The notes under the pieces: model-generated | What the model was told of the DNA's origin: nothing | Seen by the model: the letters and a program-made list of their open reading frames with translations, nothing else | Databases searched by the model: none | Position numbers and translations under genes: made by a program | From: Psammoneis japonica | Taxonomy: Eukaryota | DNA length: 64,000 nucleotides | Reading direction: 5' to 3' | Assembly: GCA_008632985.1 (NCBI GenBank) | Contig: QPGO01000008.1 | Span: forward strand, 1-64,000 | Shown: piece by piece, positions 8,520 to 56,500 of the stretch | Layout of the letters: each line of letters opens with the position of its first letter | Position numbering within the stretch: position 1 is the first letter of the stretch

Positions 8520-8532
8520 GGCTCTGACAAAG
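8520..8532 (-). promoter_or_regulatory. Putative tRNA-iMet primer-binding site of Copia-1 (CTTTGTCAGAGCC; cf. canonical TGGTATCAGAGCC)
   Basis: Directly follows the 5' LTR on the minus strand. TCAGAGCC core is intact; TA appears as TG. Confidence 0.6.
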
Positions 8533-31899: not shown

Positions 31900-32548
31900 G
31901 GTCAAAACTGCTGGGCAGTGCATTGCCTGTGTCAGACTCATGTTGGTGTGCAAGCCACAGCCACAGCAGCAGCTTTCGTAACATTTCCAGTGCTGCGCAG
32001 TTCTCCAACAGGAAGACTTTCCATGACACCGTGGTTTTTGGGTGGGCAAAGCAACGCTCACAATTTTTCACTGCGCCAAAAGAAACAATGGCAAGCGGAG
32101 CATTGACAGTGCTTCAGGTTTGTTGCTCCACTGCAACCACTGTCCTCAAACAAACAGCGTTGTGCTGTGCTTCTGGTCTGCAGCACTGAGCTCTGACTGC
32201 CCTTGTTTTGTTGAGCCCATTGTTTTGCTTTTTGTCATCCATGATTTTAAAACATTTTTTCCTGTGGTGTTGATGACAAGCCAGAGTCTGCAACAACTCA
32301 GCCAGCAAGATTCTTGTGAGAAAAGCTCAGCCATCTTTCTGCTGCCTGAGAGCACCACACTTCAGCTGCTGCCCAACAATTTGGGCTCTTGCGCAACCCA
32401 ATTTTGCCAGAAAGCAGCACTCAAAATGTGGCCATGTGTTGTCAAAGCATTGGCTCATCAACCAGGCAGGGGCACATCTCTTTGTGCACTGTTGCAGCAG
32501 TGCCAGGTGCCACATGTTGGGCACCAAATGCTGTGGCTCTTAAGTTGA
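31900..32548 (+). pseudogene. Eroded host-like gene remnant resembling the C-terminus of diatom LRR/RNI-like proteins
   Basis: LLPNNLGS...KMWPCVVKAL...TSLCALLQQ resembles L..N..G....LWP.VL....S.LY.LL after Tyr->Cys correction. Confidence 0.35.
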
Positions 32549-35500: not shown

Positions 35501-35740
35501 GGACAACACCATCTCTTCGCATTCTCTCGTTTCGAATTCGGCAAGTCGCTCTGTCGTGTTTTTTTTTGTGCGTCACCGCACGCGTGCATTTTTCTGGTTG
35601 CTTGCTTCTCACATCTCGTTTTGTGGTTGTTTTGCACCAGGGCCTTCGGAATTTCTACAAAACTCAAGTGTTCGCCCGAGCATTCTCCGAGTGACAGTTT
35701 CTGCTGGAACAAACTTGTCTTGGTTTGTTTTCACTGTGAC

Positions 35741-35991
35741 GCTTGCTGTTTGCACTTTTCAGCATCTGGAACTGCCTCAGAGGCTGCCTCTGTTCATCCG
35801 CATCACTTTTGCGGTGACTGACGTTGGCCCCCTCTCTGGAGTGCATTTGTCGTGCAAGCAGGCACGCAGCTTGCTGTTTGATGCTTTTCAGCATCTGAAA
35901 CTGCCTTGGAGGCTGCCTCTGTTCATCCGCGCCACTTTCGCGGCAACTGGCGTTGGCCCCCTCTCTGGAGTGCATTTGTCGTACAAACAGG
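35741..35991. repeat. Two-copy ~128-bp tandem duplication inside the transposon
   Basis: gcttgctgtttg...cagcatctg.aactgcct..gaggctgcctctgttcatccgc... at 35741 and 35869. Confidence 0.9.
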
Positions 35992-36014
35992 AGTGCAAAA
36001 GCAGTGCATTTGCC

Positions 36015-36857
36015 ATGGACATGTTGGCCAAAGTAGCCTCCCAGCAGCGTCCCATTGGCGGCACTTCCCCTCAAGCAAGCGATGACTCTTCCAGCACGTT
36101 GAAGGTTTCCTTTTGTGTCCAGCGTTGCATCAAGGCACTCACGGAACATTGCCCACCGCAGGGTGAAGCCAAAACTTGGTGCACTGTGCCTCTCCAAGAT
36201 GCAGCTGATCCCCTTGAGTGCCCTCAAGGTCTTGTAGATTTGAGCATCTTGACCACAGAAGATTGTGGAACAAAGAAGACGAGCCCTCTCTTTCATGTTC
36301 TTCATCACAAGAATGGTTTGGATGGGTTCAACAGCGCCAAAACACGGAACATGTTCTGCAACACTGTTGTTGATTGGTTTTGTGAAAAATTTGACTCCAA
36401 GAATCAACCACAACTGAACCAACACATCAAGGACAAGAACCAGCACCTCTTGATGTTGGTTGTGGTGCCATCAGGAATGTTGATGAGGGATGCCATGAAG
36501 GACAAGCAAAACATTGCTGCTGTTTTGATGCACTGTGTCAAGACAAACATTGGCCTGCTTGTTGATTGCGTCCGTGTGACAGAGTCTCTGGTTGTGTCGG
36601 TTGGGACGGGCAATGAGAGTGAATCAATCACACCGTTGAGTTGAGGTGCATGTCCTTTTTTGATTGGACTTGCCCAAGCCATTTGCTGTGGTGTTGTCAA
36701 GAAGATGGATGCATGTCTTCATTGTCAGAAGACTTTGAAGTCTCACTGCATTGGAGTGATGGGTTTTGAGGACATCACGGACACCATGAGTGATCGTTCC
36801 GACCTGGCGGACGTCCGCAAGCACTGGGACTGGGATGATCTCATGATGAATGATTGA
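36015..36857 (+). pseudogene. Transposon cargo ORF, possibly GNAT acetyltransferase-like; one in-frame TGA at 36642
   Basis: LLVDCVRV...S*GACPFLIGLAQAI...LKSHCIGVMGFE; after Tyr restoration it resembles GNAT motifs A and B (..YY..MGF). Confidence 0.35.
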
Positions 36858-37344
36858 TGCAACACTGTTGCCCTGTGTGCAAAGGAGAGGATTGCTCCAA
36901 TGAGCTCTGCAATTGTTTTGGCATTGCCTCATTCCAGCGCTGAGTGTCAGAACGTCGCAACAGAGATCCGCAAGAATGAAGACTGTTGGGAGGAACCGCT
37001 TGTTGAAGGAGGATGCATTGCTGATCATTCGTGCAATGCCAAGCACTGATTCCACTTGGCATCTTTGGTCAACATTCACAACCTAGAAACGTGTGATGAT
37101 GAAAAGTCGACCAAAGATTTAAAGACGCGTCTTTTGGCTGCCTTTTGGCGAGGCCGTGTTTCAAAGTTGGTGGCAAATTAAGTCTCCAAAGGGAGTGAAG
37201 AACAATTTTGAAATGTTGGCTTTGAAGGGGTTGCACGTCAAGTTCTGCTGTGAAACAAGACATCCTGTTCTATCTGCAAAACAGCGCTGGGGTTCAATCT
37301 GCAACCATTGCTCTGTTCCAAACTAAATCGCTCAGAGGAAGCAG

Positions 37345-39650
37345 GTGGACGAAAAGCTGCGTCGAAAGCCACGCATCAGCCACAAGAAGTTGAAGAAAAT
37401 TGTGGATCACAGCGACGATTGTGTTTTTCATGACGAGTGTTGCAAAAGGGAGAAGCTTGAACAGCCAGATGATGACATGCAGGAAGATCCCTGCATTCCC
37501 GAACTTCCCACCAACTCACAATGCAAAGTGCTCACAAGTTGCACGAGTGGCTGCCGGAGGATTTTCTCATTTGGGCCATGCGACCCCAATGACAGACTGC
37601 CATCCGAGGCCTTGTTTGACATCATTGCAGGTTGGCGGCACAACCATGTGTTGCGGATCACCTCTGATGGTGAATGCAGAGGCACCGCTTGTCCGCTGGA
37701 CCAGCGGTGCAAGCCTTTCAAGCTGTGATGACACTCCATCACCGAAGACAAACACATGTTTGAAGTTCACTTCCCCGCCGGACCAAGCAGGAAGGACTGT
37801 TTCAAAGAGCCGCTTGCTCACCTTGCTGATTGATGCAAGGCAGCTCCTGGACTTGCATGGTGCAAGTTTTGCAGAAGGATCCGTTGCCATCGTCACATGC
37901 ATCATGCTGGTGCCTGTGATGCAAGGTTGAAGGAAGAGGTGAAGGAGGAGGAAGAGGAAGAGGGGAAGGAGGGCAAGGAAGAGACGGATGACCTGCAAAA
38001 GGCCGAGGCTGGCACTGCAAGGTTGCAACTGCGAGACAAAACCCAGGAGGAGGAAGATGGGGCCATGGATCAATCGCCTGAGGAAGAGGAGGAAGAGGAG
38101 GAAGATGACGGTGTGCAAGACGAAATCCAGGAGGAGCAAGATCCAGAGGAAACTGAGGATGAGGAGGAAGATGAATGCAAGGAAGAAGTTTCTGCAGCTG
38201 CAGAAGAGAAGAGGGAGAAAGCCAAGGCTGCAAAAGAGAAGAGAGAGAAAGCCCCGGCTGCAGAAGAGAAGCAGGAGACAGCGGGGGAGGCTTTTTGCAG
38301 ACGCTTGCATCAGCTTTTGAAAGACATCACTGGAGTGCATGAGGATGAGGATCTCATTGGCCTTTGCAGCTCTGTCCCAAAACCAAGGCCAAAAGGAGAC
38401 ACTTCATGGCATCGGTTGACCAAAGAGCAGCAACACCAACAAGAAAGGGATCGACTCAAGCGTGAGTGCGAAGACGCTCAAGTGATGTTGCAGGTTAAAA
38501 AACTCATTTGGATTGATCCAAGTAAATGGAACAGCAGGTGTCAGCATCCTGGCAATTCCGAAGGAGCCGTTCCTCACTTGTTTGGTTGCTTTGAAGGGAA
38601 AAACAAGGATGTCATGTTGTGGGAACAATGGTTTGACGTGCGATGCAATGAAATGAATGGCCATCCCATGAACATGTGTGCGGACCTCATTTTACGTGCC
38701 AAACACAAACCAAACAATCCCCAGCAACTCAATCGAAAATGCAGGGATGAGATTAAGAACAAGGTGGAATTGATTTGCAACCCACCGCAGATTGCCAAAC
38801 TGAAGAGATTGACTGAAGCAGAGATTCAAAAACTTCCACCTGTTGGGTGGGGAGCTGATTTCATTGGCCACAGCTTGGAGGGGAACCGTCCCATGTGTGC
38901 AACCCTGGATTGGGCTGAGTGCAAGTTTGAGTTTCGGTTTCCAGATGTGTGGAAAGATTTGAAAGAATTGAAGCCATTGGATGGTTGTTGCTCCTTGCCG
39001 GAAGGAAACGTGTTGATGCCATCGAACAGCAACTTGCCGATGAGCGGTCCACCTGTGAAATTCCTGCAAGGACAAAACGACACTTGCGTTTTTTCCTCCT
39101 TGGCCAGTGTTCTTGATTGTGCTGGTGACATGGAAATGAGAGACTGCACTGCTTCTCACATTCAAACATCTGCCAACTGTGCTGACACTGACAACAAGTG
39201 CATGTTGTTTGCAAAGAACATGTTGAATGGTCGTTTGAAGGGAAAATTCCCGCCTGAGAACTCAAACATGAAGTTTTGCGGCAGTGTGGATCAAACGATT
39301 TCCCTTGCAGCAGGTGGTGAATTTGACATGACGACCTGCAATGATGACTTCACAACTTTGTGCTGTCTTGTGAACAACCACACTGCATTGCCTTGCACCG
39401 TGGATGGATCTTTGATTCCAACCACCCTTTTGCATTGCCAGCAAAGGACATTGAGTGCTTGAATTGGTGTCTTGGGAACAAGGAACATGAGATGAAATGC
39501 ACGGTGAAAAAGCGTCTGCAACAAGTGTTCATGGTGCACCAGTTCAAACTTCCTGGGGAGGTGCAGCAGAAGTTGCACGCAAAAAGGAAAGCTTTTGTGT
39601 TGGACGGCATGATGCAAAATGACACAATCACAGTGTTTGTTCATTGTCCC
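37345..39650 (+). pseudogene. Transposon cargo ORF: acidic Glu-rich region plus papain-fold/C39-like cysteine protease domain
   Basis: QGQNDTCVFSSLASVL (Gln, Cys), then HCIALHRGWIFDSN (His, Asp) after a frameshift near 39375. Confidence 0.5.
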
Positions 39651-39659
39651 ATTGCCACT

Positions 39660-42566
39660 TCATTTGTGTGAATCATCACTGTCGCTGTCCCCTGCCGTGC
39701 TCTCATCATCCTCCGCAGTGTCTTCCATGTCGTCATTCTCTCCCCCCCACTCACCAGCTTTGATGTCTTGTTCCTCCACCTCATCCAAACAGTCCTCAAA
39801 ATGATCCATTGCCCCCCGCTGTTGGATGGCATCCAGAATTCCTTCATGCGTTTCATCACTCAAATGACGTGGATGAAGAAGTGAAGCCTCGTTCCTGTTG
39901 CACGTGCTTGGCAGTTCCAGATTGGCCAATGGTTCATTGAGCTCAATGTCGGCAATTGCAATTTGCTTGAGCAACACTCTTGTCTTGCATTCCTCAGCAT
40001 CACCGGGAGCGCACCATCCTCTGGCCCGTGGAACAGGGTTAAGATGCATTCCCTTGCAAACCCATTCACTGGCCTTGGCAGTTGTGGGCATGTCAAACTC
40101 TTTCCACACCTCGTCCTCCTGTGATTTGTGGAGGAGTTCATCCCATTGCAGCAGATGGAAGCCCTCCTCAGATTCACAAGGCAATGCGGCACAGCTGTTT
40201 GGAACAATTTCCTTGGCCATTTCCTCAGTCAGGAAGTCCAACACAGATTTGTGAACCAGCTGCACCTCGTCGGCGTCACTCTCATCTGTTTGAATCACCT
40301 GACACACTTGCCAATCATTTGTCCCCTCAAAGATGGGCCACAGTTTGCAAGCTCGGTTGCCACCTGCATGTCGTGGCTGCTCTGTTGGCTTGACATTTTT
40401 AACCCAAGGCCGTTTCAGCTGATCCAGGCAGGCTTCACAAGCACAAGGAATTCTTCGCATTGCAACCCAGCCAATGGGGAAAAGAGGTTCAAATCAGAAA
40501 TGGCACAAGGCTCCAATGCCACAATGGCATGTGTGCACTTGCACCAACCCAATCAACTTGACTTTGATTGAAGAGCCAAGAACTTTGTCAGCTTCCTGCA
40601 GATGACACACCCTTTGCATTGACTTTCAAAGGGATTCCCTCTTGGCATGTTTTCTGTCACCAACTGTGCCGAAAGCATTCTTGTTCTTTGTGACCATTTT
40701 TGCAACATTCCTTTGCACAACTGTGTGCGGCTGCAACACTGTTGTCATCCATGACCAAAGCTTCAGGTCTAATTTTCCCATCCCTGTCATTGACTCCTGC
40801 AACAGTTGAGTGATTTGATGTGGGCTCCAATGCCATCAACCTCTCCTTTGCCATGTCCAGGTGCTCCAATGGCACGGTCAAACACAATGTTGCATTTGTG
40901 TGCAAAGACAGACAACAAGTGCAGTGCCAAAGCACATCGGCATTGTTTGGCACAACCATCAGTGTGATCCCAAATCACAAGCCACGCCTTGTGCAGGTTG
41001 TGGTTTTTTAACCAGGTGACAAACTTTTCCAAGTGAGCATTGGTGGTGGTGGCATCTTGTTTGGAAGAGTCAGAGAGATGCGCATGATGTGTTTTCTGAA
41101 GCTCATTGTCAACCATTGCATCGCAAACTCTTCCTTTGATTGACAATGTTTGGTTGTTGCCACAATGGTCACCCTGAACTTGGTTGTTGAACTCTGCCTT
41201 CTGATGCTCGGAGCAGTCATGAGACATGAACAGGCTGTTGGGTGTTGACTCAAATGCTTTGTGGCGCATTTCCATGCAATGATTTTTCCCAAGAATGACC
41301 GCGTGGGGAAGGTGGCAGTGGAGCTTCTTTAAACTTGGAATGCAGTGCTCTTTTGTAAAGACACTGACTGGTTTTCGGAACCTTGTCAACAAGGTCCCAC
41401 GTTTCACCTTTGCATCCTTGTTCCCATCTGGATCTGCCTCACAAACAGGACATGCTTCCATGCACACACCATGCTTGGAACAACTTTTTTACAGTTGAGC
41501 AACGTTGAAACAAAACTTGGGGTGCACTGGGACTTTCATTCTGTTCCAACAATGGAGTTGGATGGGATGGGATGATCCTGACCATTGACATTGCCGCAAA
41601 TGATGGTTGCAACTGCATCTCGGGCTTTGGGATGAAGGTGATGGCCGTTGGGGCCAAACGCCTCCTCTTGATGGACACGCATTGTTTCCTCCAATTTGCC
41701 AAGGGCACTGTCACAGTTCTCCAAGTTCTCAGGATCCTCACTTGCAAGCTTCAACCGATTTTGCTCCACCTCCATCTCTTTTAAAAGCTTCCTTCAAAAC
41801 CTGTTCAATGCATCTTGTAGAAAATTGGCGTTGGTGCAATTGCTGCATTGACACATGCTGCGTTGACTTGCTTTCATTTTTCGACACTGCTTGGGAATCA
41901 AAAATCAAAACATCGTGTCGCTGATGAGGGTCTTGCCATTGGCATCACGTGCATGTTTGAATCCGCCAACAGACACAGGCTTCAACATGTCATTGTGCAG
42001 CTCACGTGTGGACACATTGCGCAACCATTTGTTCACTCGTTTCTTGTTTCCATCTTCATCTTTGCTGAGAATCATGTCTCATGTGTTGGGAGACTGCACT
42101 GTGTTGGGATGATTTGACAACCAGTGCACAAATGCCTTTCGGATCTCAGGGGAAACTTTGTGAGGATGCCGACGGGGTTGCACTGAAGACCACATGACAT
42201 CGTCAGTGTTTGAAATCAATGCCTCTCTGGCAATCTTTCCCTTCTTCATTTGGCGATGAACAGTGCTCTGTTTCAGGCCAAGTGCCTTGGCATGGTCATG
42301 GGAAGACAACTTTTCCTCTTCATCAGATTTTTCTGGTGAACCGGAGATTCCAGTTGCCAGAGCACGGACAAACGATTTTTTGTCGTCGGCGAGGTGTTGA
42401 CCATTGCTGGCATCATTGGCACGTGCCCACATTTTGCCCAACTGCTTGGCAATTTGCAAGGCTGCAGAATTTGTTTTGGCAATGTCAAATTGCAAGCCTG
42501 AAGAAATGGGGCTAACTCGGGAAAATGCAAAGCATGCACAAACGCACAGATTTGTTGTTCTTGAGT
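39660..42566 (-). pseudogene. Sola-like transposase, fragmented; the N-terminal part may continue beyond Copia-2 at ~49748-50370
   Basis: DCSE..NQVQGDH, DHTDGCAKQCR, GHGKGEVDGIG and RRIPCACEAC correspond to D(F/Y)SE / DG..QY / HGKG..DG motifs. Confidence 0.72.
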
Positions 42567-42571
42567 GGTGG

Positions 42572-42765
42572 TGTCAGCCCATCTGCACCTGTCGCATGAT
42601 GGACAGACTGGATGCGGATGATGGCTGGACCATTTGGATGGACAAGCAGATCTCTCTGAGATCTGCTTCTCACTTTCTCATCTGCTGGCACTCATGTCAT
42701 CACAGTCCTGGTGCTCCAGGGAGTCTTTCACACCTCTGTCACTGTCGACCTTCGGCATTCTGTCA
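42572..42765 (+). repeat. Copia-2 5' LTR (194 bp)
   Basis: Direct repeat of 49550-49742. Confidence 0.95.
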
Positions 42766-42777
42766 GGTTGTGGCCAC
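42766..42777 (+). promoter_or_regulatory. Putative PBS GGTTGTGGCC (cf. copia half-tRNA-iMet PBS GGTTATGGGCC)
   Basis: Directly follows the 5' LTR; TA appears as TG. Confidence 0.65.
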
Positions 42778-42943
42778 ACGCTGTGCCACAGACCTCTGCG
42801 CCAAGCTTTCTGTCTCGATCCATTTGTTTTGTGAGCCGATCAAGCGAGCCTCATCATCTGATCCGACAACTTTTTGTCTCGCTTTCCCGGCATTTTTCAC
42901 GACCGTAGAAACACGCCAGATTTCCACGCGTGCATGACCAAAA

Positions 42944-45900
42944 ATGGCTCCACCCACTAAAACCATGGCGTCTCCCGACCTTGCAAAAGCCGCTCCTGCG
43001 TCAATTGCAGAGATCTGCTGCGAATTTGAGGCACACACAATGACACCACATCTACATCAGTGCCTGAGTGCGGTTTGTGCAGACTCCATGACTGATCTCG
43101 ATCGATTTTTTGACGATCCAGAGCATGCGCAACCCAAGAACGATTTTGCGGACATGCTTCGTGATCATTTCATCCATGAAGCGTTTCCACCTTACACAGC
43201 TGATCCCACAGATGTAGAGTCAATCAAGACGATTGTGGATCAAGCCCCGTTCAGACTTCTTGACCCTCAAAGGCCTCGTCCAGTCCGCCTGACGACTCCG
43301 ATCTTGTCAAAGATGATCAAGACAAATCTTCAGAATGGTGAACAATCTCTGTTCATCATCATGTCTACCCAACACATGCATGTTGATCCGGACATGATGT
43401 GGAGCTGTCACAACTGGAACGAGTTCTCTCTTGCGCCCCACCAGAAGAAACAGCAGCCTCCGTCTTCTTCTCAGAAACCCACAGGACCTGCTACATTGAC
43501 TGTGGCTGACTTGGCAACTGCACTCAATGCATGAGCGTCGAGCCATGCTCCGCCTTCTGCAGCTTCTGCCAAGACATCTGGAAGCACTGCATCTTCCGCA
43601 ACATCGAAGTGCCTCTTCAATCCAAGCACACTTCCTGCAGACGTTCGTGCACGCTACGACCGCAAAGAAGATGGAAAAGTTGCTCTTCAGAGCTCTCTCG
43701 TCCCTTGCGACCATGGATTCCGTCACTGTGTTGATGCATCCGATCGTGTCATCCTTGATGATGGTGCCCTTTTCATCATGAGCTCGACTCCTGATCAGAA
43801 AATGCTGTTCAGAGAACCTCCTGCATGTCATGACGACTCTCCCCCTGGGATGCAAGCATGGTGCCAAAATCTCCAACGTCATGCCTTTGATTCAGGTTGC
43901 TGCGTGCATCCCCTGTGGTGTTTCACTGAGGATCACGGTGGTGAGAAGGGCTTTGAGATCGGCAACGGCAAGGATGATGACTTGCCTCAACGCATGTACG
44001 TCCACTGCAAGGAAGCTCAGAGTTCTCTCCACAAAATCCTCTCCAAGTTGGATGTGTTCCCCAAGAACAGCAAGTGTCATCGGATTGTTGCATCGTGCTG
44101 CGGCAACGGACACAAGGCTCCAAAGCAGATTGTCTGCGAGAATCACCCTGCCTTTGATCATGATGCTGCTGGACTTGTTGACTCCCATCCCATCCAAGGC
44201 AATCGATCATTGACGGACTGCCACATGATCTTCAATGATTTCCTGCAGCTACGTGCCCACATTTTTGATGCGGACTCTACGTTGAACGATCCACGGGAGA
44301 TGACTGTCTTTGTCAAGAACACTGAGTGCTCCAAGTTCTTGTCACGTGCTGCCAGAGATGAACGGAAGTCTCCAGCCATGCAGAAGAAGCACACGGATGC
44401 ACAGATTGTCGAGACTCTCTCTGATTTCCTCCGCCAACCGGATGGCCCATCCCTTCCCACTCGTACGACGCAATCCAACCCACGCCGTACATGGAATCGA
44501 GCAGATGCTTCTACGCGACGCACACCTGCCAATGTCAACTCTCTCCAGATCCCTGAGATGCCCCTCCATGAACCAGTTGATGACTCTGCCACTGAAGATC
44601 CTGGTGCAGAATCTCCACCTCCGGATGCCTTTGATGCTCTTTGCGACGAATTGCACGAACTCGAGATCCCATCTACGGACGAAGATCGAATCCTTCACCA
44701 TGTGCACTCGGCTTCAGTCTACAAACTGAAAGTCACTCCGCATGAAGCCTCCAAGAAACCATGTCTTGTCTGCTCCGGAGAGCATTTGTTTGATGACTGT
44801 CCAGTCCTGAAGAATGACCCGTGCATCAAGGGATTCCACATCCGTTTTTGTCAATTCTTAAAACGGGAAGCAGCCATGCGTGCTTCTGAGTTCCAAGGAC
44901 CCCAAGGTTTGCTCCCACCTCATCACGGATTTTCAATCGGGCCGTTGCAGCTAGTTTCGGATCTCCGGCGCTGCCCGTCATCTCCTCACTGAGACAAGAC
45001 CAATGTCAGCGGGATGACCTTGAAAGAGGGACTAACCGTCTCGTCATCTGCCGCTGCAACACCTCTTTCCTCACAGATTGACATGGATGCCACCCCTTCC
45101 ACCTCCACGAAGACATCATTTGACACTGACACGTTGCCCGATGATGACCCTGCTCCTCAAGAAGCCTCCGTCGATGCTGCTCATGTTCCGGATCCTTTGG
45201 AACAGGGGAGGGAAGACCCAGAAACACCGGTTTTTGAGGAATGTGTTGATCTCACCTGTGATGACATGGCTGCTGAAGACGGTTTTGCTGCCGTCAATTC
45301 TGTTTGTGTCACTCCAATTGATCCATGCCAGGCGAGTCACTCACCTGAGCCGGAACCACTGCGATCCACTTGTTCTGTCAATGGGGCAAACTTTGCTCCA
45401 AATGAACGTTGTGCTCAGTTGGATGCAGGTGCCGACATTGCGTGTGCAGGCGACCGTGACCTCCTCCATCACTGCCAAGACTTCACTCCGTCCCATCCCT
45501 GTCCCCTTGCCGTCAACCCGGCCCTTGGCCACCAAGCTGTCCCAGTTGGATTCGGCTATCTTCGCATCCCTGCAGAGAACTCTGATGGCCATGTTGAGGT
45601 CCGTGCACACTGCCACCCACAGATTCAATCTACGTTGGTCGATGAGCGACTCCCCCTTCGTCAAAATGGTTCTCGTCGCGCAGATTGCAATGTCGATTGC
45701 ATTCTCAAGTTCCACGATCTCGGCACCTGCAAGTTTGTTGCACGACACCGATTGCGCAAGAGTCAGGACATTGTCATTCATGGAAAATTGATCAATGGAA
45801 AATGTTTTGCTCACCCTCTCATTCTCCCGGAATCTAACGACAAACTGGATGCATCTGTCGAGCGCCTCAAGACTGCTGATCCTTCTTTTGCCGATGAGTG

Positions 45901-48900
45901 TGAAGCGGTCTCTGCACACATGATTGAGACTTGTTGCACCCACCAACATGAAGCTCTTCGTGATGAACGCAAGTTGATCCCCCGTGTCTGTCAAGACATT
46001 CCTTTCAAGAAGTGTGCTGAGAAGAACATTCCTGTCCAGTCTCTCAAGGCCGACACGGAACGTCTTTTGTGGCATCAGCGACTTGGTCATCTGAGTGATC
46101 ACTGCCTTCATCATGCCCATGAACATGTTGATGGCGTCCCCAAGTTTGCCCACGGAACTTCTCCTCTCGACACTTGTCCTGCATGTGTGCGAGCCAAGCA
46201 GACGAAGGAACCTGCCGGTCCGAACACTGCTCTTGCTGCTGCCCAACCATGCCAAGGCCTTGCGATTGATTTTTCCTTCTCTGGCCTGCACTCCAAGAAC
46301 TCGGAGCGCACCAAGGACTGTGTTGGATTGAATGGCGAGACTTGTTGGATTGCTGTTTATGATCATAAAACGAAGCGTCTCCATGGTGCAACTCATGTCT
46401 CCAAGGCAACCCCTTTGAATTGGATTCACCACTTTCTGGAAGAGCACTCGCCAAAATGTCCAGATGAACATGCACCCATGGATCAAGGAGGTGAGTTGCA
46501 TCAGAACCCAGAAGTTTGCCGACTCTTTGAGGATGACTTTCATCATGCAATTCGTCCTGCGGGAAAAGATGCTTCAAATCAGAGTGGCCCAGTGGAACGC
46601 AGTCATTTGTCTGTTGCCAATGCCATCCAGGCGATGCCAATCGGTGCCGATTTGCCCATCAAATTCTGGCCCTGTGCTTTTCATCATTTCATTTGAATCA
46701 ACAACGCTGTGCCATCCCGTGGACAACCTGCTGCTCCGATCACTCTTGCTGCTGGTTGGAAGGATGATTTCAAGAACTTTCGTACGTTTGGTTGTCGAGT
46801 GTGGGCACGTGCGTTGAATCACCGCCCAGCAAAATTTCGGTCTGTCTCTTGCAAGGGAATGTTCTCAGGCTGTCTTCCGGACACTGCCAAGAACATTCTT
46901 TGGTGTGACACTGAGACATCGCGTGTCAAGCTTGCCAAGCACATTCGCTGCGATGAGGGCATGAATGATCTTCCCCACGACTCTCTTCCGCCGAATGTGG
47001 TTCACTTGGAATGCACTCAAGATGGCAAGGCTTCACCTGCCAAGACTGACAAAACCACGATGGATGAGCTCCACTTTCATGGGAATCCTTTTGCCAAGAC
47101 CATTGAGCACACGATGAAGGGACCATTTGCTGATCCCATGTTTGGACTTTCCTTGGCTACGGACGATCTCTGTCGGCGAGCATTTGTCTCTGACATCAAG
47201 CGTGGTTCTCCTGCTGCGCGTCTTTTCTCTTCTTTGAAGGCTGCCCGCAACAAGATCAAGGGTGCGTGTGTTGCATCAATTGATGATCATCCCATGTTCA
47301 CGGCAGAGGAGGCCATCAAACGTTTTCAGCAAGTCTGTGATTCTGGCAAGACTCATTTTGAAATTGAATTCGCGCCGGAACGTCGCCTGGACTCTCAAGC
47401 CCTACAACGTGCTCTGATGGAACACAACATGCGTGCACCGAGTCCTGATCCTGATGATGAGCATGTTCCGGAAATCACCAACGCCGACATGCGTGCCATT
47501 GCTGCCATCCGCCACCCCGACATTGATTTCTCCGAAACGGATGATGACGGTGTCCCTCCGCCATTCTTTGTTGATTGTGACAATGGTGTGGTCAACATCT
47601 GTGCTGTCTCATCTCACGCTGTCACTCCAGAGGAACAAGCCTCAGGTGCTTTCACCCGCCACTGCCTCAAGAAGTTGGACACGTGGCCTGAATGGCGTGC
47701 AGGTGAATTCAAACAACTTGACCAGTTCCATGAGTTGGGGATGTTTGGTGCACCGATTAAATGACCCAAGGATGCTGTCGCACTTTGTCCACATTGGCAA
47801 CATGACCTCAAGCATGATGGCACACGGCGCTCTCGACAGTGCTGTGATGGATCTCCCCGTGCTGCGTTGATGCTACATTGACTCTACTCGACGCACTCAT
47901 CCTGTGTTGAGCAGCCCATCCAACGCATGTTTTTTGCCCTTGCTGCGACCATGAGCTATCCTGTCTTTGGTGGGGATGCTCGTGATGTCTGTGCACACTC
48001 TCCACGACCGTCACACCCCGTGTGTGTTGCCACAGACGAGGCATGCGCAACCTGGCACAAGGCTCGGTTTGGCATTGACTTGGACAGGAGCATGGTGCTC
48101 CCGATGCAACATGCACTTCAAGGACACCCAGAAGCCGGCGTGCTCTGGGAGATGCACATCAACGGCATTTTGTCTGATGTGAACCTGCTTTTTCGCAACA
48201 CCACTCATGACAAATGCATCTGCTCTGCTGCTTTTGAAGGACACAAGATCTTGCTCCTCCGTCAGGTTGATGGTTTCTCTCTCGCTTGTCCTGAAGAGTC
48301 TGTTGCGATCAAGATCTGTGACAAGATTGGCAAAGCTCTCCAATTGGAATCGGAAACCTCTCCGCCATTCAAGTGTCTTGGCATGATTGACGAATTCAAT
48401 GGTGCAGACATTCATCAATGCGATGGCTCCATTGGTGTTGCTGTTCACAGCTGTGTGGATCGGGTTTGTGCCTTGCATGGTTGGTCGACACCGACGGATG
48501 AGGAACTTGACGACGACTGCAAGGCTGCGCCACCACCTGTTGACTCTGTTTGCGAACTGTGCAATGCCATTGGCCCAGCTGAAGGAACCCCGGAGCATGC
48601 GGAACTGCAACAAGCTGCTGGTTTCAGCTGCTGAACTCTTCTTGGTGAATTGTTGCATGCGTGCGTTGTCTGTCGACTGGACATTGGGCATGCCATCACT
48701 GCCCTGTCCAAGTTCTCGACCTGTCCTGCTGTGGTTCACTGTGACGCGCTCAAAGGAACATGCAAGCACCTTCAATGCACTGGACATTGGGAGTTGAACT
48801 GCAGGATGCCCACCCAAGACTCCAAACTGCCCGCCCACCCCTTCGAACGTCTCACTCCGGACCCGACCTTGCCATCGTTCCCTCATCCTGCACATGATCA

Positions 48901-49372
48901 TCAACTCGTTGCTTTCTTGGATGCTGCTTGTGGCAATGACCTCCGCAACCGTCGTTCTACGACTGGCCATGCTTGCATGTCAGCTGGTGCTGCCACATCT
49001 TTTCGATGCAAGACCCAATCGGTGACCGCTGCGAGCTCTACGGAAGCTGAATTTTGTGCTGCTGGAACTGCTGCCAAGCATGTCCTGCACCTTCGTCACG
49101 TTCCACAGGACCTGGGCTTCCCTCAGACGGAGCCAACCCCGTCACACATTGACAACGAATCGGCGATCAAGATCATCAATCACTCGATCCTGACTGAGCG
49201 ATCCCGTCACATTGAGATTCAGTTTTTTGCGATCCAAGAATGGAAGGAAGCGGGCAAGATTGTCACGAGACATGTTCCTGGCATTGTCAACCCCAGCGAT
49301 GACCTCACCAAGGCCCTTGGCTGGGTGCCACACGCTCGCCACGCTTGACGCATGATGGGACACTGCTGTTGA
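42944..49372 (+). pseudogene. gag-pol: Copia-2 gag-pol (CLVCSGEHLFDDC zinc knuckle, PR, IN, PDZ-like domain, RT, RH); in-frame TGA at 46694, 47762, 48632 and 49346
   Basis: Collinear ORFs 42944..43534, 43778..44992, 45014..46696, 46709..47764, 47927..48634 and 48650..49348. Confidence 0.92.
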
Positions 49373-49540
49373 CATTTTTTTCCACGGTGGCCTCCCTGCT
49401 GCGCATTGCCCTCTTGTTTGATGGCGTGTTGGGCATGGACACTTCTTGCGTCCTGTGTCTGGTCTCTCTGTTTTTTCCTCACATCATCCCTGTTCTTTGG
49501 TTTGATCTGCACTGTTCTCTGTGTTGAGATGTCACAGATC

Positions 49541-49549
49541 AGGGGAGGG
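49541..49549 (+). promoter_or_regulatory. Polypurine tract AGGGGAGGG of Copia-2
   Basis: Directly precedes the 3' LTR. Confidence 0.85.
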
Positions 49550-49742
49550 TGTCAGCCCATCTACACCTGTGCATGATGGACAGACTGGATGCGGATGATG
49601 GCTGGACCATTTAGACAGACGAGCAGATCTCTCTGAGATCTGCTTCTCACTTTCTCATCTGCCAGCACTCGTGTCATCACAGTCCTGGCACTTTGGGGAG
49701 TCTTTCATGCCTCTGTCACTGTCGACCTTCGGCATTCTGTCA
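49550..49742 (+). repeat. Copia-2 3' LTR (193 bp)
   Basis: Direct repeat of 42572-42765. Confidence 0.95.
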
Positions 49743-52283
49743 GGTGGTGCAAGACAACACTCCTTCTCTCACTTTGACCGCTGCACAACAAAGTGCCTGC
49801 TGGGGATCTTTGTGGGTTGCTTTGAATGCATGAGGATTAAAAGTGGGGCAACCTTGGGAGGCGGTGAGGTTGACAGCAGTTCAGTTGGCCGAAGTGACAG
49901 GAGAGGGAGTGACGGCGGCATTGTCAGAGTTGGGGTTGGAGGGAGTGGCAGCCACTCCTGCAGTGTGCATTTGGGAGGGGCTTGGCTGTCTTGGCAAGGA
50001 CAACCCTGGACAATGAGTGGGGTGTTCCTTGGAGGTGTTTGGGTTGAAAGCCTCCAGGTCAGTGGGAGCAACGGAGGGAGTGACGGAGGCAGCAGGGCTC
50101 GGGTTGTTCGGGCTGGAGGGAGTGGCTGCAGCTCCTTCAGCTGCAGCAACGACATGGGCAGAGACCGTGGAGTGTGTTTCAAGTTCACGATGAGGCTTCT
50201 TGTTTTTGCTGTTGCCAGTCCCTGACTTGTGTTGACGGCCAACTCCATTTTGCTTCTTCCTCTTGTTGCCCACGATGCACTGGAAATTTGATTGAAAGTG
50301 TGCATCGAGAGGGCTGGTGAATGAGACGGATGGCAAGTCGAGAGAACACACATTTTTTTGGCATGCTCAATCAAATTAACTGTGTTGTGTCTGCAGAAAT
50401 GAGGTGTGTTCGGACGTCAGTTGAGTTGAAGAAGACCAAACACACGAGCTCCGAAAAATGAAAAAGTGAGTGATCACGAGCATTTTTCATGTGGAATGGG
50501 ACACCAGCCGAAAATCACATTTGGCACAATCAGCAAGTCCTTCATTTTTGATCATTTCGAAAATCGAAAGGCAAGTGCACACCCGAAAACACATGTAAAG
50601 TGTGCACTTGCCCTTCGATTTGGCAAAAAACAGATTTTGAAAAAGTCATTTGCGCTGAACCTAAAAATGGGCAAATGATGGGAATCGAACCCACGCGGAG
50701 CACCTGGAGCTGGAACAGGCCAAGAGGACAATCCTCAAGGCAAGCCACTTTAAGCTGGAAGCACATCTGCATCTTCCCCTGGCTGTGTGAGCACAGGCAC
50801 TACTCCTGCTTGCACAGCAGCACAGTTGTCAGCTTTACAAAGCTGGGTGAAATTGAGCAAGGAAGCCCCCTGCCTTGCTGGAGAAGCTTGCTGCCCACCT
50901 CTCCTCATGGCAGCTTGTGTGCATTTCAACAACTTGGCCCAACAAATTTTCAACAGAAGCCACTTTTCTCAAAGATGCCAAAAAAGTAAAGCTGCACCTT
51001 TGCCATGGTTGCCAGGAGCACAGTTGCTCTTCAATGAGCATGCCAATGCTCTCATGTTCGACACTCGTTTCCTCATTTTGCCACCCCAACAAAATTTCAG
51101 ACATTTGATTGCGCTGAATTTCTTGGCTCTCAGAAATGCCTTTGCAGTGTTCCTGGATGCAGACCCAGAAGCTGAGGTCTTGTCACCTTGTTGCATGAAG
51201 GTGATTCAGCCATCAAGAACGCCTCCAGTTCCCCACCACATCATCGGCACTTTGAAGTGTGGGTGAAGTGACAGCCATTGCCACAGCCCAAATGAGGGCG
51301 CCGCTGACATCACTGTGTCAAATTGGCAGCAACCCATTGTCATGACACATTTGCTGCTCTTCAGTCAAGAAGCACAAACAGCTCTGCACAAAGTTTCCCT
51401 GCCCTTCCAGAACACCAAACAACAGCCTTCATCACTCACTTTTCATTGACCATCCTCCTGAACCCACCCAGTTTTGTCACATGCTGGGGGCCCCACAGAG
51501 AGCATCTTTGAAAAAACCTCTGCACATGCAGAGCTCATGAGAGCCATTGTTTGGTGTTTTTGGCACTTCAGGAAGAGCTGCACAGCACACAGCATCTGTT
51601 CCACCCAAGTGGGCTTTTTTTCAAGTGCTTTGGATTTTGCAGTCTTTGCAGGGGAGAGCATCCAAGTGGCAACAATGCTGGGCTGGTGATGATGGCCAAG
51701 TTGAGAAGTTTGGTGCAAAAGATGTGCCACCAAAATGAAAAGAGGGTTGATTGCACCCACCCCATTTTTCATTGATGCCCCCCACTCCTCTCCAGATTCC
51801 AGGTGGTGCAGTGTTTGGGGGGCCCACAATGGCAAAAGCGTGCTTCTCTGTCCTGCCTCTTTGATGGGTGCTCAAGGAGTGCTTTGTGCAAACATCAAAG
51901 AAGGTGCATTTGCGCACTTTTCCAAAGGTGTTTGTCTTTGCACAACAGCACTGAGTCTCTGCTGAGTTGATGTGCAACCAAAGATTTTTGCCGTGCCTTT
52001 GCCAGGCTCATGTGACACAATGTGCCTCCCCCCAACTGCAAGAGTCTTGTTGTTGGGCCACCACATCTGTGAATTCAAGCTGTGGGAACAGCAAAAAAGA
52101 AGAGCACTTTCTTTGCTGTTGCCACTTGGCACTGCCTCTTGTCTCTCTTTGGCCATTGTCAAAATTCAACAAATCCTTGGTTTCTTTGCTGTGTTGCAGA
52201 TGGCTGATCAGATTTGGCAAAAATCACCTGTGATTTTGGTGAACTGCAATCCCAGCTTCTGGGTCATTTGGGTGGGTTGGACA

Positions 52284-53530
52284 CCAAAGTTGCAAACTCA
52301 TGACAGTTGACAAAAGTTGACAAACTCGTCAAAGTTGACAAAGCTGACAAAGTTGGCAAACTCACCAAAGTTGAAAAAGTTGCCAAAGTTGACAAACTGA
52401 CCAAAGTTGAAAAAGGTGACAAAGTTGACAAACTTGCCAATTTTGCCAAAGTTGCAAACTTGTCAAAGTTGACTGCACGGGTCTGTGGGAAATCATGTTT
52501 TTGAGCAAAAAACAGAGAATCTCTGTGAGTTTTGACTGTTTGCAATGCCAACAGCGCAGCCGCACGCACTTTTTCTGCATGATGAGCTCGTGCGTTTTTG
52601 ACACAACTTTGACACAACTTTTGACACAAATCAAAGTTGTGCTGCAGTTTTGAAAATGCACATCTGGGCATTTTTAGAATTCCTGCAAGACTTCCAGTGA
52701 AAAAATCTGCACAAAAAAACACAACCCGGGTGTGCATTTTGAAAGCTGTGCCACACATTTTGAAAAATGCACATGCAGGTTCTTTTGCATGCAGAAGTCT
52801 GGTGCATTCCCACATGACACAAAAGTTGGGACATTTTCAATTGTGCACATCCGGGTCTTTGTTTCTCACAGTTTTTTGAATCAAAAGTCGTGTCTAAAAA
52901 TGTCTTTTCTACGAGGTGGTGTCGGCAACAAATTTGTCTTGTCTGACAGATTTTGTGCTGGCAGGCACAATTCACATCAATTTTGACATGCAGGTGGCAA
53001 AAATGGCAATTTCCCACAGACCCTGCAACCAAAGTTGACAAAAGCTGCCAAAGTTGGCAAACTCACCAAAGTTTAAAACAAGTTGCCAAAGTTGACAAAC
53101 TTGCCAATTTTGCCAAAGTTGAAAAAGTTGCCAAAGTTGACAAACTCATCAAAGTTGACAAAGCTGACAAAGTTGGCAAACTCACCAAAGTTGACAAAGT
53201 TAACTCACTCACCAAAATTGACAAAGTTGCAAACTCATCAAAGTTGACAAAGTTGCCAAAAAGCTGACAAAGTCGCCAAAGTTGACAAGCTCACCAGAGT
53301 CAACAAAGTTGCGAACTCATCAAAGTTGAAAAAGTCTCCAAAGTCACCAAAGTTGACAAAGTTGGAAAACTCACCAAAGTCAGCAAAGTTGCCAAAAAGA
53401 AAAAGTTGACAAACTTTTCAAAGTTGACAAAGCTGACAAAGTTGGCAAACTCTCCAAAGTTGACAAAGTCACCAAAGCTGACAAAGTCACCCCAAAGATG
53501 CCAAAAGCTGCAAACTCATCAAAGTTGCAA
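52284..53530. repeat. Degenerate 9-bp minisatellite (CAAAGTTGA/CAAACTCAC-type), split by a MITE
   Basis: Arrays at ~52284-52473 and ~53029-53530; KVDKLTKVDK translation periodicity. Confidence 0.88.
52479..53023. mobile_element. ~545-bp non-autonomous TIR element (MITE-like)
   Basis: 15-bp perfect TIR GGGTCTGTGGGAAAT (52479-52493) / ATTTCCCACAGACCC (53009-53023) interrupts the 9-bp array. Confidence 0.75.
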
Positions 53531-56500
53531 AGACGTGCTCCAGCCCCAGGTGAAGCACAAAACGGCAATCCATTTGAGCGCAAATGTTGCGCACTTTGTG
53601 CAAGTCCTTGTGGGATGTGCATCACAAAATTCCTCAGCAGACTTGGCGCTGATTGTGCGACAGCACTCAAGGCACAGCAAAGCCTTTTGCAGGCAGAACA
53701 CATGCTGAAAACATTGCAAAAACATTTTGTGTCAATGTCCGCACATTTGATGTGAGCATCTTCAACTTTTTTGCCAAAAACATCCACTGTGTTGCAACTT
53801 GCTTGTTGCAATGAAAACATTGACAGCATGAAAAACAGTGGTGTTGCAACACTGACACGTGTCTTGTTGGTGTTGCATGACACAAATCTGCACTTTTGGC
53901 AACAAAAGATCTTTTGCAAGTCAGAGACCATGCAAAAATCACACAAATGTTGTTTTTGCACATGACTTGGTTTGCGCATGGCTGGAGCATGTTCAAAGAA
54001 GTCAGCAAAGTTCTTGACAAAGCTGGCTGCAATTTTTTAATTTGGAAATGGGTGCATTCAGCGAACATCAAGTTTGAGTTTAAAATTTCATTGCTTGGGC
54101 ATTGATGTTTGACATCAATGGCAGGATGTCAAACAAAGTTGATGATGCAATTGTCATTTCAGACAATTTGTCAATGAAACAGTGGCTGCAAAACAAAAGT
54201 CAATTTTGGCAGCATGTTGATGACACTGTGGCATTGAATGAAATGGCTTGAAATGACAAGACAATGGCAGAATGCAAAGGAAATCCCATCATCACACTTT
54301 GCAAGACACAAAAAGGTGATCATTGTCACATCAATGAAGAGAAGACCATGCCAAAGATGCCACAAGAGAAAACAAAAGAAAGGCAACATCTGGTCATGAG
54401 GTGAGCCCAAGGTTGCTGTCAGCATTGGAGCAGACAGGATCAAACGGAGGGCACAAAGCATCTGGTGGGGCCACAATCTGAGATGCACACAAGCATGACA
54501 ACATTTCTGTTGCCATGGTTGGTTGGCATGAAGACTGCCAATGTTGGTGCCCATGAATTCATGGCACAATCTTGCAAGTTGACTTGCAAGTTGAATTTTC
54601 CAAAACAATCTTGTCACCTGCTGCTGGTGGCCTCAAATGTTGCTTGGTTGCTGGGTGGTGCGGGTGACATCTGAATGGTCAACAACATTGCCTTGGAAAG
54701 TTCTTTCTGTGCACTCTCATTTTGTGCCATTTGTCTGCTCACCAAATGTGTTGTTTGTGCTTTGTCAGAGTTTGAACGGTGAACACATCATTTCATGTGG
54801 TCGATTTTTGCTTTGATGGATCCAGGCATTTTTTTTAACTTTGTCGTCATCACAAAAGCACGCCCATTTGCTGGGAGCCTTGAGCTTCACCCCGCCACTC
54901 TCTGCGTCCTTTGGCAAATCTTTTTGTGCTGTTCATTTGGACTTGTGACAAGCTTGACATGTTTTTGGAGGTCTTGGTTGGCTCATGATCACATGTTGTT
55001 TTTTGGCAACAACAATTTCTTGAAAGTGTGCGCCGTGGGAACAAAACATTGTGATGGAGCCTTGGAGACACCTGACACCTGTGATGTTGGTGTTTGTCAG
55101 ACAATCTTGTCACAGTCAAAAGACAATGCTCCTGTGAGCACATTGTGATTGGCTGAGTTTTGGACTTGTTTTGACAAAAATTGCGCGCCTCATGAGCAAT
55201 TGATTTGTGTCCAGTTCATGTGTGCAGGTGGTGTCTGGTCCATGTGACCCTTTCTTCCTGCTTTGCAACCACACTTTCTTCATTGTCTAACACATGACAT
55301 CACCTGTGCCATTTTGGAAGATCTGGGCAGTGTGCTGACAGGTTGAAGCTTTGCAATGGGCAAAATGGAAAGGTGGAGGCTTGTGCTGCGCCAGGCTCCT
55401 CACCCGATTTGTGGATGCACTGCACTGCCGGCAAAGTGCGCACCTTTGCAAATGATGACTTGCTGATCTTGCTGATCTCAGGTGGAGACAAAATGTCTCT
55501 GGCAGATTAGAAAAAAACTGGAACAGAAGGCAAGCAGTGATTGAGAAGTTGCACATTGTGTGTTCTCTTTCAGCCCAGTTCATTGTTCTTCTTGACCTGT
55601 GTGCAGGTGACTTTGCACCGGCCGGCGCTGGAGGATGATGCAAGCGAAACAGTGGTGTTTGACACCACAGTGCAACTCCATTGAATTCCAGTTGAAGTCA
55701 ATCTGAAGCAACCCGAAGCTTTCAAATCCTTTCTGTTGTGACTTGATTTGCTCTTTCATGTCTTGACTGATTTCTTTGGATGGAGTTGAGGAATGAAGAG
55801 CATTGCCAATGTGCTTGGAATCAGCAAATACTTTGCTCTGGAGCAGAGCTTGGCGCAAAAGGCAAGAGATCCATCATTTGTGATTTTTGACTTGTTTCAT
55901 CATTTTTGGCGTTGTCTGATGAAAAGTTGGACAATCCATTTAAATGACTCACAGCATTTTGCTGTTTTTCAGAGGTGTGATTGCACAGCTCTTGGCACTC
56001 CAGTTTTCTTTAGAGCAAGATTGTTGCATCACATGTCCTTTGTGCAGCTCTTTCACCATGTAAACCAAGCTGAGTGCAAACACTGCATGGCATTGTGAAC
56101 GGAAATCCAAGCAACTGTTGCACGCAGGAGATGCAGCAGACAGACAAGGAGGGAGAGGAGGGCCAAAAGCATGGGAGCCCAGATGACAAAAGGAGCGCAA
56201 CAAGTTCCTGGCCTGAGCTCCATGACTGCGCCCAATTGTTGAACAGCAAGAATCAAATTTGAAAAAATTGGCATGCAAAAAGTGGCAGTGTCATTGTTCT
56301 TTGTGCATTGCATGCAATGGGCAGTGACATTCAAGTGCAATTCTGCATTGCATTCATTGATGTCATGAAATGGGCAATTTGAAAAATTTGGCATTCAAAG
56401 AGGAGAAGTAAAAAACAAACACAATGATGTGCTGGCTGGCATGATTGGCCTCAGGCAAATGCAGAAAAATGAATCTTGGGTGTGCAACATGATGTTGCTG

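Follow-up and report, generated by a model that had tools for sequence, protein, structure and literature searches.

TA steps in a diatom Copia retrotransposon appear to be lost to TG or CA after insertion

Fungal RIP converts CpA to TpA in both members of a duplicate and thereby raises TA content. The process described here resembles RIP in that dinucleotide-specific transitions strike repeats after insertion, stop sharply at gene borders, kill the elements and distort LTR dating. Its chemistry is the opposite, however, since TA is removed while true CA and TG columns stay stable. RIP hits both duplicates, and most LTR pairs of the diatom family are altered at both ends too, but one copy (L032) has a 5' LTR that escaped although its partner did not. 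The closest known case is that of the chlorarachniophyte Bigelowiella natans as given in the main text of a preprint: TpA>TpG/CpA change was measured directly in living lines, at ~1000-fold over background and in local regions, TE-type Pfams are enriched among TA-poor genes, and an A-deaminase and a defence role were proposed (Mettrop et al., bioRxiv 10.64898/2026.01.13.699255).

Going by that main text, the diatom element and B. natans share a near-exclusive A:T>G:C change at TpA, on either strand, in local mobile or foreign DNA. The diatom (stramenopile) case differs in that multicopy LTR retrotransposons are hit, alongside CpG decay, and that depletion is near saturation, with a TA obs/exp of ~0.1 in the element vs 0.45 in the B. 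natans giant-virus region. The rates also differ in basis, being measured in living lines there and inferred from copies here, where a per-A hazard of ~1.1 vs ~0.001 for background transitions gives a time-averaged ratio of ~1000. The 3'-pyrimidine rule and the off-target A>G changes seen in the diatom element are absent from the preprint's main text, which makes no mention of flanking or trinucleotide context, LTRs, retrotransposons or diatoms (bioRxiv 10.64898/2026.01.13.699255). A literature search, with most subscription papers outside its scope, brought up no paper reporting TpA hypermutation in a diatom. A process known from one chlorarachniophyte preprint now extends to diatoms and to ordinary retrotransposons, in which natural replicates set its direction, timing and sequence rule.

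A dead Copia element and its LTR pair

The window (the whole 64,000-nucleotide stretch analysed) carries at 42572-49742, on the plus strand, a full-length Copia retrotransposon, now dead, in a pennate-diatom-like genome (Table 1). Its direct LTRs with TG..CA ends, 5-bp duplication, polypurine tract and domain order (PF13976, PF25597, PF07727, which places the integrase region upstream of RVT_2) are those of Ty1/Copia elements. The identical GGTGG duplications bounding the LTRs show the element's coordinates in the first-pass annotation to be exact, and an element-free version of the host stretch exists as a contig joint that skips 42568-49750. The family comprises 157 candidate copies in the genome, and of 15 elements, 14 have perfect target duplications. 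The RVT_2 region is 52-56% identical to its best protein matches, diatom Copia RT proteins among them, and the nearest named proteins are from Nitzschia inconspicua and Cylindrotheca fusiformis. The motif abutting the 5' LTR is one that we take, from general Copia anatomy, to be the primer-binding site; the window contains no tRNA gene for comparison with it. The majority of the premature stops in gag-pol lie at CpG-class columns. A Pfam search of the host repeat flanking the element and of the remainder of the domain gave nothing convincing. Among the data sets listed, no RNA set contains the element. As published for diatom CoDi elements, LTR pairs are 94-100% identical; our element is similar in its length (7.2 kb), 194-nt LTR, TG/CA ends, 5-bp duplication and integrase before RT, and differs in that its LTR pair is 92% identical, with a gap that is almost wholly YpR (PMC2806351).

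Table 1. Coordinates of the features within the window
Feature	Position	Strand	Remarks
Unrelated Copia, control	1881..8715	-	LTRs 1881-2066 and 8530-8715; inserted in host repeat
TA-depleted domain enclosing the element	31800..59240	.	TA obs/exp 0.00-0.16 per kb; edges sharp
Left target-site duplication GGTGG	42567..42571	+	Identical to 49743-49747
5' LTR	42572..42765	+	194 nt, TG..CA ends; bears LTR-pair differences
Primer-binding-site-like motif (presumed)	42766..42773	+	Abuts 5' LTR; conserved, with YpR steps varying between copies like the remaining element
gag-pol, single reading frame	42938..49372	+	Seven premature TGA stops; Tyr codons nearly absent
GAG-pre-integrase domain PF13976	46022..46201	+	E=1.8e-8, over cut-off
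Retroviral SH3-like domain PF25597	46754..46960	+	E=3.5e-7, over cut-off
Copia-type reverse transcriptase RVT_2 (PF07727), degraded	48068..48469	+	E=3.5e-4, below cut-off
Polypurine tract	49541..49549	+	12 bases preceding the 3' LTR identical in 13/14 other copies
3' LTR	49550..49742	+	193 nt, TG..CA ends; TA retained at both TA/TG sites
Right target-site duplication GGTGG	49743..49747	+	5 bp, matches the left one

Formal alignment of the two LTRs recovers all nine YpR differences and the 1-bp indel (at 42593) noticed at first pass, together with one non-YpR transition at 42716 that is visible in the pair tcCAg/ttTGg given there and went unmarked; there are no transversions. The nine sites consist of two TA/TG sites (42584, 42635), five TG/CA swaps (42639, 42686, 42712, 42717, 42731) and two CA/CG sites (42643, 42693). 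YpR steps make up 49% of positions and hold 14 of the 15 differing bases (binomial p=4e-4) or, counted as events, 9 of the 10 differences (p=0.009). When 15 LTR pairs are pooled, 227/1404 YpR positions differ vs 20/1519 others (p=3e-53). The substantial non-YpR divergence that would speak against the pattern is not found, amounting to one base in this pair and 1.3% over the 15 pairs. The single YpR signature suggested earlier therefore stands as a pattern, but it comprises two processes: the alignments support a dominant TA>TG/CA mutator, which would account for seven of the nine sites, and ordinary CpG decay for the other two.

The minus-strand Copia occupies a TA-depleted domain of its own (1 to ~13100). 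It yields no blastn match to the first element and 23% identity over 219 aa of the RT region, which bears out the claim of an unrelated lineage on the opposite strand in another domain. The same spectrum is seen in its LTR pair (3 CA/TG, 1 TA/TG, 1 CG/TG, 1 CA/CG and one edge difference). The interval 1668-2066 was rejected as an LTR of this control: 1668-1883 belongs to a host repeat that recurs at 96-99% on numerous contigs, and the LTR spans ~1881-2066.

Direction, timing and context of TA loss

Across 30 LTRs of the family, the columns of the seven dominant-class sites are TA-derived, holding TA, TG and CA with CG absent, and those of the remaining two reflect CpG decay, while columns that are truly TG or CA vary hardly or not at all. 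The swapping columns read TA in the least-mutated LTR, the comparison proposed at first pass, and outside relatives carry Tyr where the copies encode Cys or His, so that a TG/CA-rich ancestral consensus is not what the family shows. With this LTR as query, a search for an unmutated LTR brought up none, the best other match being 92% among 40 scored of 152 candidates. At ten columns where outside proteins have a conserved Tyr, the 140 codons of 15 copies encode Cys 75, His 59, Tyr 4 and Arg 2 times (Cys or His in 134/140); conserved Trp is intact in 160/160, Cys in 73/74 and His in 195/204. Because conserved Tyr codons became Cys or His, the direction of change is TA to TG/CA. The L091 LTR pair by itself gives no direction, since its termini differ as TA vs TG/CA.

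Six sister copies serve as replicates. Only 2-3 transversions per 1000 separate them from the window copy, yet YpR transitions reach 53-58 per 1000. At 302 TA-class sites they retain TA at 11-24%, i.e. 76-89% is lost, with CG in 1 of 1812 copy-sites, and at 376 CG-class sites they retain CG at 83-90%. Both strands are altered, the window copy having 151 TG and 117 CA outcomes, and the sisters share the same TG or CA outcome at just 47-60% of sites. Comparison of these copies thus shows TA loss to be independent in each of the six and to fall on both strands. Among the six, copies that have lost more TA have also lost more CpG (r=0.97, in effect from two groups).

The changes extend beyond the element, with flanking DNA and tandem arrays TA-depleted as well. 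Gene regions have a TA obs/exp of 0.40-0.77 per kb, and one such TA-normal region (~13200-31780) separates the two TA-depleted domains. LTR pairs are mostly altered at both ends; the one clear exception is copy L032, whose 5' LTR lies beside TA-normal gene-type DNA and keeps 17 TA while its 3' LTR keeps 3. Further LTRs that lie at a domain edge are mutated in full; the case for positional targeting depends mainly on this one clear escape. From this pattern we infer that targeting looks positional, rather than set by the pairing of homologous copies, and that the TA-depleted domains probably correspond to silenced, CG-methylated chromatin. DNMT5a is responsible for CG methylation of TEs in P. 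tricornutum (PMC9998398), and the present genome (G000) encodes several C5-methyltransferase domains.

Sequence context adds further detail. At sites where one A alone has a 3' pyrimidine, that A is the altered one in 431/636 cases; 3' T equals 3' C, and 3' G is disfavoured. At position -2, A is preferred (2.22 vs 1.0-1.25 for the others), and TACG is the slowest TAC context, with a hazard of 0.55 vs 1.44-1.65 for TACT/TACC. The per-A hazard is ~1.1 at TA vs 0.004 at other A, a ~250-fold difference. Off-target A>G obeys the same 3' rule (44/5765 with 3' C or T vs 10/6815 with 3' A or G) and thus points to one A:T-directed agent; in subfamily B the off-target excess is non-significant (40/8136 vs 26/7212, p=0.27). 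Private C>T at CpA occurs in 0/4580. Same-strand runs of changes are not found: same-strand neighbours are slightly too frequent at 1-5 nt (z=2.6) and too rare at 11-20 nt (z=-2.4), and the clusters typical of a processive single-strand (APOBEC-like) deaminase do not appear. We regard it as nearly certain that the change runs in the stated direction, takes place after insertion, affects both strands and each copy independently, prefers a 3' pyrimidine and is confined to sharply bounded repeat domains.

A proposed host mutator and its rivals

The best overall explanation, to which we assign a probability of about 60%, is a deaminase-type host mutator that acts on TpA after insertion, within silenced repeat domains. 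Once a Copia copy had inserted, the host would mutate chromosomal DNA at TpA steps, each TA being converted separately, on one strand or the other, by the change of one A:T pair to G:C; the resulting TG or CA would then be inert to further hits, and initially identical LTRs would therefore end as TA/TG, TA/CA or TG/CA. Chemically, the most likely route is deamination of adenine in DNA to hypoxanthine, which replication reads as G. In parallel, methylated CpG would decay to TG/CA at ~1/20 of the rate and supply most stop codons. Mobile DNA is permanently inactivated as a result, which is probably also the purpose.

Whether this chemistry, by a recruited enzyme of the TadA/ADAT fold or a similar candidate, is the one at work we consider evenly balanced. 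Native TadA requires TACG/YTACGAA (PMC12255301). As published, TadA/ADAT2 and the base editors resemble the diatom process in their A>G chemistry, in the pyrimidine (T) 5' of the A and in accepting a 3' C; they differ from it in that here TACG is disfavoured, the -2 pyrimidine rule does not hold, 5' C makes no target, 3' T equals C and runs are absent (PMC12255301; bioRxiv 10.64898/2026.07.20.739671). TadA/ADAT-like deaminases are encoded in the genome, and a PF00383 search gave 9 matches, which look like routine housekeeping genes, with no expanded or TE-linked deaminase family among them; their family labels are presumptive, being assigned from motifs.

The same data would fit, with appreciably lower probability, a lesion on thymine, in which the T of R-T-A is oxidised to 5-hydroxymethyl- or 5-formyluracil, or an error-prone polymerase working in silenced chromatin inserts G across from T; either would yield T>C. 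Oxidised thymines miscode, the strand-symmetric data leave T>C and A>G inseparable from sequence, and both the lack of strand runs and the TACG mismatch fit a mark on double-stranded DNA. Against the polymerase-eta version, whose WA motif predicts AA>AG above CA and GA, the A>G rates show no AA bias, being equal at AA, CA and GA (16/3410, 19/4620 and 19/4550).

It is improbable that TpA adenines in silenced DNA are first methylated (6mA or similar) and then deaminate or miscode, as 5mC does at CpG. Such a mark would suit the palindromic target, the single hit per site on both strands, the absence of runs and a TA loss that parallels CpG loss between copies. Known eukaryotic 6mA lies mainly at ApT in active genes, however, and A>G at non-TA ApT is merely ~0.75% (24/3180), the same as at ApC (20/2585).

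Two further readings are very improbable and, in our analysis, refuted. The first dispenses with a special mutator, deriving the pattern from a TG/CA-rich founder through CpG decay and RIP-like CA>TA and TG>TA. Two of the nine sites are indeed CpG decay, and an isolated TA/TG or TA/CA pair lacks direction, but the LTR column classes (TA in the swap columns, near-invariant TG and CA elsewhere) and the Tyr codons, changed while Cys and His stayed, contradict it, and TA is depleted rather than enriched. The second places the error in the retrotransposon cycle, with RNA edited by an ADAR-type enzyme or reverse transcription itself biased. ADAR2 has its hot spot at 5'UAG, with the same 5' U (PMC10661471), whereas the element disfavours 3' G; moreover, reverse transcription yields identical LTRs, yet this pair differs by two-strand TG/CA swaps, and flanks and tandem arrays are likewise TA-depleted. 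The least credible reading, an assembly or polishing artefact of collapsed repeats, might be invited by so large a family, but it conflicts with the near-universal perfect duplications, with a context-specific and directional spectrum, with contigs of run X1 (possibly the source run and so non-independent) that span all 30 bins at >=97% identity and carry three listed differences, 0 of them in LTRs, and with the same change in metagenome contigs of another organism.

Those contigs contain a related Copia family with the same TA change and the same 3' rule as the diatom element, which suggests that the process is not peculiar to a single genome. The first metagenome scan, with query P0215, gave no match, and the kinase flanking the metagenome copies has no match in the diatom genome at E<=1e-30 when used as query. 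Returning to the host mutator, we put forward only tentatively that diatoms and chlorarachniophytes, with the metagenome organism included, share a genome-defence mutator of polarity opposite to RIP, namely an editor of A:T pairs in double-stranded DNA at TpA (~A-T-A-Y), in silenced chromatin, chosen by position and of host-dependent strength. If so, it would amount to an adenine editor of double-strand DNA that occurs in nature. The context rule serves as a fingerprint for tracing the enzyme.

Consequences for dating

The apparent age of hypermutated elements is several times their true age, and identity-based TE ages are undermined in affected genomes. The overestimate anticipated at first pass is borne out, raw LTR dating being too old by ~4-20-fold. 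LTR elements of diatoms were dated in a 2025 study from their identity, using the rate of P. tricornutum; dinucleotide effects and RIP go unmentioned in the main text of that study (bioRxiv 10.1101/2025.10.24.684338). Dating from non-YpR sites only, as had been advised, is still inflated because A>G leaks beyond TA: in this subfamily it is ~4 times as frequent at non-TA sites as C>T outside CpG (non-significant in the second). Transversions together with non-CpG C>T provide a safer clock.

The element, its copies and the two classes of YpR column

The Copia at 42572-49742 is an ordinary diatom Copia, with PF13976, PF25597 and a degraded RVT_2 within one frame in Copia order. Aligning its LTRs returns all nine differences and the 1-bp indel listed in the first-pass annotation, together with an additional transition adjoining a YpR site (TA, TG, CA or CG step) and zero transversions; YpR steps hold 14 of the 15 differing bases (p=4e-4). 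The element carries seven premature stops, all TGA and mostly in CpG-class columns; a stop cannot arise from a sense codon by TA loss.

An LTR search of the host genome assembly, with the best 40 of 157 candidates scored, led to 20 fetched stretches, of which the 14 with both LTRs were used and six partial or rearranged ones left out. A perfect target duplication flanks 13 of the 14. Their LTR pairs record 72 CA/TG, 29 TA/TG, 19 CA/TA, 13 CG/TG and 8 CA/CG events, compared with 13 transitions of other kinds and 6 transversions. When 30 LTRs are compared, their YpR columns form three groups: stable TG/CA; mixed TA/TG/CA, in which CG is nearly absent; and CG accompanied by some TG/CA. The LTR signature is therefore the product of two processes, one in the TA group and one in the CG group. 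Seven of the nine YpR sites of the window pair belong to the TA group and two to the CG group; six of the seven have TA in some copy, while 42731 shows only TG and CA.

Five close sisters differ from the window element by 2-3 transversions and 53-58 YpR transitions per 1000 bases. Across these six copies, with 50 ambiguous columns set aside, TA is retained in 11-24% at 302 TA-class sites and CG in 83-90% at 376 CG-class sites. CG occupies just 1 of 1812 copy-sites of the TA class, so a TA site takes one hit and is inert afterwards. Sites changed identically in all six copies are invisible to this count, and the hottest contexts are thus under-counted.

The second Copia, described in the first pass as an unrelated opposite-strand lineage with the same spectrum, fits that description: it shares no DNA similarity with the window element and 23% identity in the RT region, and its LTR pair differs by six YpR events and one edge difference in 186 nt. 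The 23-bp arrays and the 216-nt unit look subtelomeric and recently homogenised, though nearly TA-free. The eIF2-beta gene points to a host resembling a pennate diatom: apart from one centric, Skeletonema, almost all of its named relatives are pennates (Nitzschia, Amphora, Entomoneis, Craspedostauros), and none of these relatives exceeds 78% identity over near-full length.

Features of the window, and candidate loci elsewhere in the host assembly (G000; C numbers are its contigs)
Feature	Position	Strand	Remarks
Full-length LTR element (Copia)	42572-49742	+	LTRs 194 and 193 nt; TG..CA ends; GGTGG duplication on both sides; purine tract before 3' LTR
Contig joint	skips 42568-49750		copy of the host stretch without the Copia; host stretch itself a high-depth repeat
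Second Copia	LTRs ~1881-2066 and 8530-8715	-	separate TA-poor domain
214-N run	5508-5721		inside second Copia
23-bp tandem arrays	1-1200, 9370-12600		at contig start
216-nt unit	1668-1883		on many contigs at 96-99% identity
CpG-poor stretches	32000-35000, 51000-59000		CpG obs/exp 0.03-0.37, against 0.5-0.7 in Copia
eIF2-beta gene	59484-60365		
Deaminase-oxygenase frame	L055:313-1785 (C79)	-	single open frame; zinc deaminase domain with DIOX_N/2OG-Fe(II) oxygenase
dCMP-deaminase-like locus	C41:505477-506590, C317:55748-56795		in two parts, same motifs, found twice

Direction, timing and consequences for dating

Comparison of 15 copies with 120 outside Copia proteins gives the direction. At ten conserved-Tyr columns the copies hold Cys 75 times, His 59, Tyr 4 and Arg 2, while conserved Trp is retained in 160/160 and Cys in 73/74 cases. 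TA is the starting state, and TG or CA the product. The ancestral TG/CA richness weighed in the first pass was not seen: stable TG/CA columns are distinct, and conserved Tyr became Cys or His. The TA process is not RIP and runs the reverse way; private C>T at CpA amounts to 0/4580. LTRs are identical at the start, so their differences arose in the chromosome. Just 47-60% of sites have the same outcome in sisters, and the outcomes form no same-strand runs; both findings speak against editing of the RNA or a single-strand intermediate.

The raw 7.8% divergence of the window LTR pair equals 8.1e7 generations at 4.77e-10, the mutation rate given for P. tricornutum (PMC6604790). As anticipated in the first-pass annotation, formal alignment of 15 LTR pairs finds low non-YpR divergence (1.3%, against 8.5% overall), and LTR-divergence dating indeed greatly overestimates age. 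This 6-fold gap compares with ~4-fold from whole-element comparisons restricted to sites of neither the TA nor the CG class. Counting just transversions and non-CpG C>T yields ~0.0019 per site per copy, or 4e6 generations, a 20-fold gap based on 34 events (95% range ~0.7-1.4 times), to which the borrowed rate and the assumption of like age for sisters add error. With TA sites near saturation, LTR identity no longer tracks age. The CpG-poor stretches are probably older parts of the domain, and CpG loss could therefore act as a further clock once TA is saturated.

Targeting, sequence context and candidate agents

The two repeat domains have a TA obs/exp of 0.00-0.18, versus 0.40-0.77 in gene regions, with edges sharp to within a few hundred bases. 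In one family copy, L032, the 5' LTR (L015, C59:205188-205381) adjoins TA-normal DNA and keeps 17 TA, against 3 in its own 3' LTR; the remainder of the element is mutated. This escape favours targeting by position, as a single clear case; other edge LTRs are fully hit. Copies L042 and L046 also contain TA-richer patches inside.

A 3' pyrimidine is favoured at the hit A (431/636 mixed sites), with a TA hazard of 1.49, 1.13, 0.55 and 0.50 for T, C, G and A, respectively, and A is favoured at -2. Outside TA, five copies (sister L035 left out) show a weak A>G excess, 54/12580 versus 11/11025 for non-CpG C>T (p=6e-7), which follows the same 3' rule and is free of any AA bias; four copies of a second subfamily show no significant excess (p=0.27). 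The native TadA motif is reported as TACG (PMC12255301). TACG is the slowest of the TAC contexts here, so the process resembles TadA only in part; as a guess, methylation of the C at +1 might protect TACG.

The TA pattern is observed, and from it we infer chromatin state, enzyme and purpose as our best reading. Silenced, CG-methylated repeat chromatin would recruit an agent that converts A:T to G:C at TpA, most likely by adenine deamination, the chemistry proposed for TpA hypermutation in B. natans (bioRxiv 10.64898/2026.01.13.699255). A lesion on the thymine side instead of the adenine, or an adenine mark at TA, are less probable alternatives. The assembly carries TadA/ADAT-like and dCMP-deaminase-like genes, among which no expansion is visible. 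The deaminase-oxygenase frame unites both chemistries considered, and its product probably serves nucleobase salvage; the two dCMP-deaminase-like loci are possibly haplotype copies. The C5 DNA methyltransferase family is represented by 27 matches in the assembly, and several of those on C10, C28 and C297 are interrupted by internal stops.

Related systems and copies beyond P. japonica

The observation is real and related to the kind recently reported from B. natans: the mutator works alike and has those of its features that were compared, a likeness in pattern rather than a demonstrated common origin. No diatom report of TpA hypermutation was found in the literature searched.

Low Tyr also marks 6 of the 120 outside proteins. 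Over 19 conserved-Tyr columns the six have Cys/His in 9/13, 8/13, 12/19, 9/13, 4/9 and 7/12 cases, against 22/1786 in the other 114. Outside proteins with conserved Tyr replaced in this way include P0195, P0198, P0215, P0234, P0146 and P0154. For P0234, the one compared with the P. japonica assembly, the best match is 46%. Tyr content of TE proteins may offer a quick screen for the TA mutator in protein databases.

Of 447 loci confirmed in a metagenome scan, the best 80 lie almost exclusively on contigs labelled as microbial mat or close to such contigs; their DNA matches to the window element are short and below 77%, and TA obs/exp spans 0.10 to 0.81. Once two duplicates are removed from nine TA-poor copies, the remaining seven, two of them near-identical, retain TA at 94 of 348 sites and show TG at 142, CA at 99 and CG at 3. 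In 47 TA-rich copies TA survives at 1913 of 2131 sites. The comparison excludes three divergent loci and the copies of intermediate TA content. Selection by low TA is circular for loss, and non-circular for products and context. The 3' rule appears here as well (184/402 vs 56/292), its p-value weakened by shared descent among the copies. One locus, L091:2698-11014, is full-length and has a target duplication, and its LTRs differ almost only at YpR. These loci form a Copia family related to the window element from another organism, in which TA loss is partial and varies by copy (especially L091, L108, L122, L125, L136 and L159).
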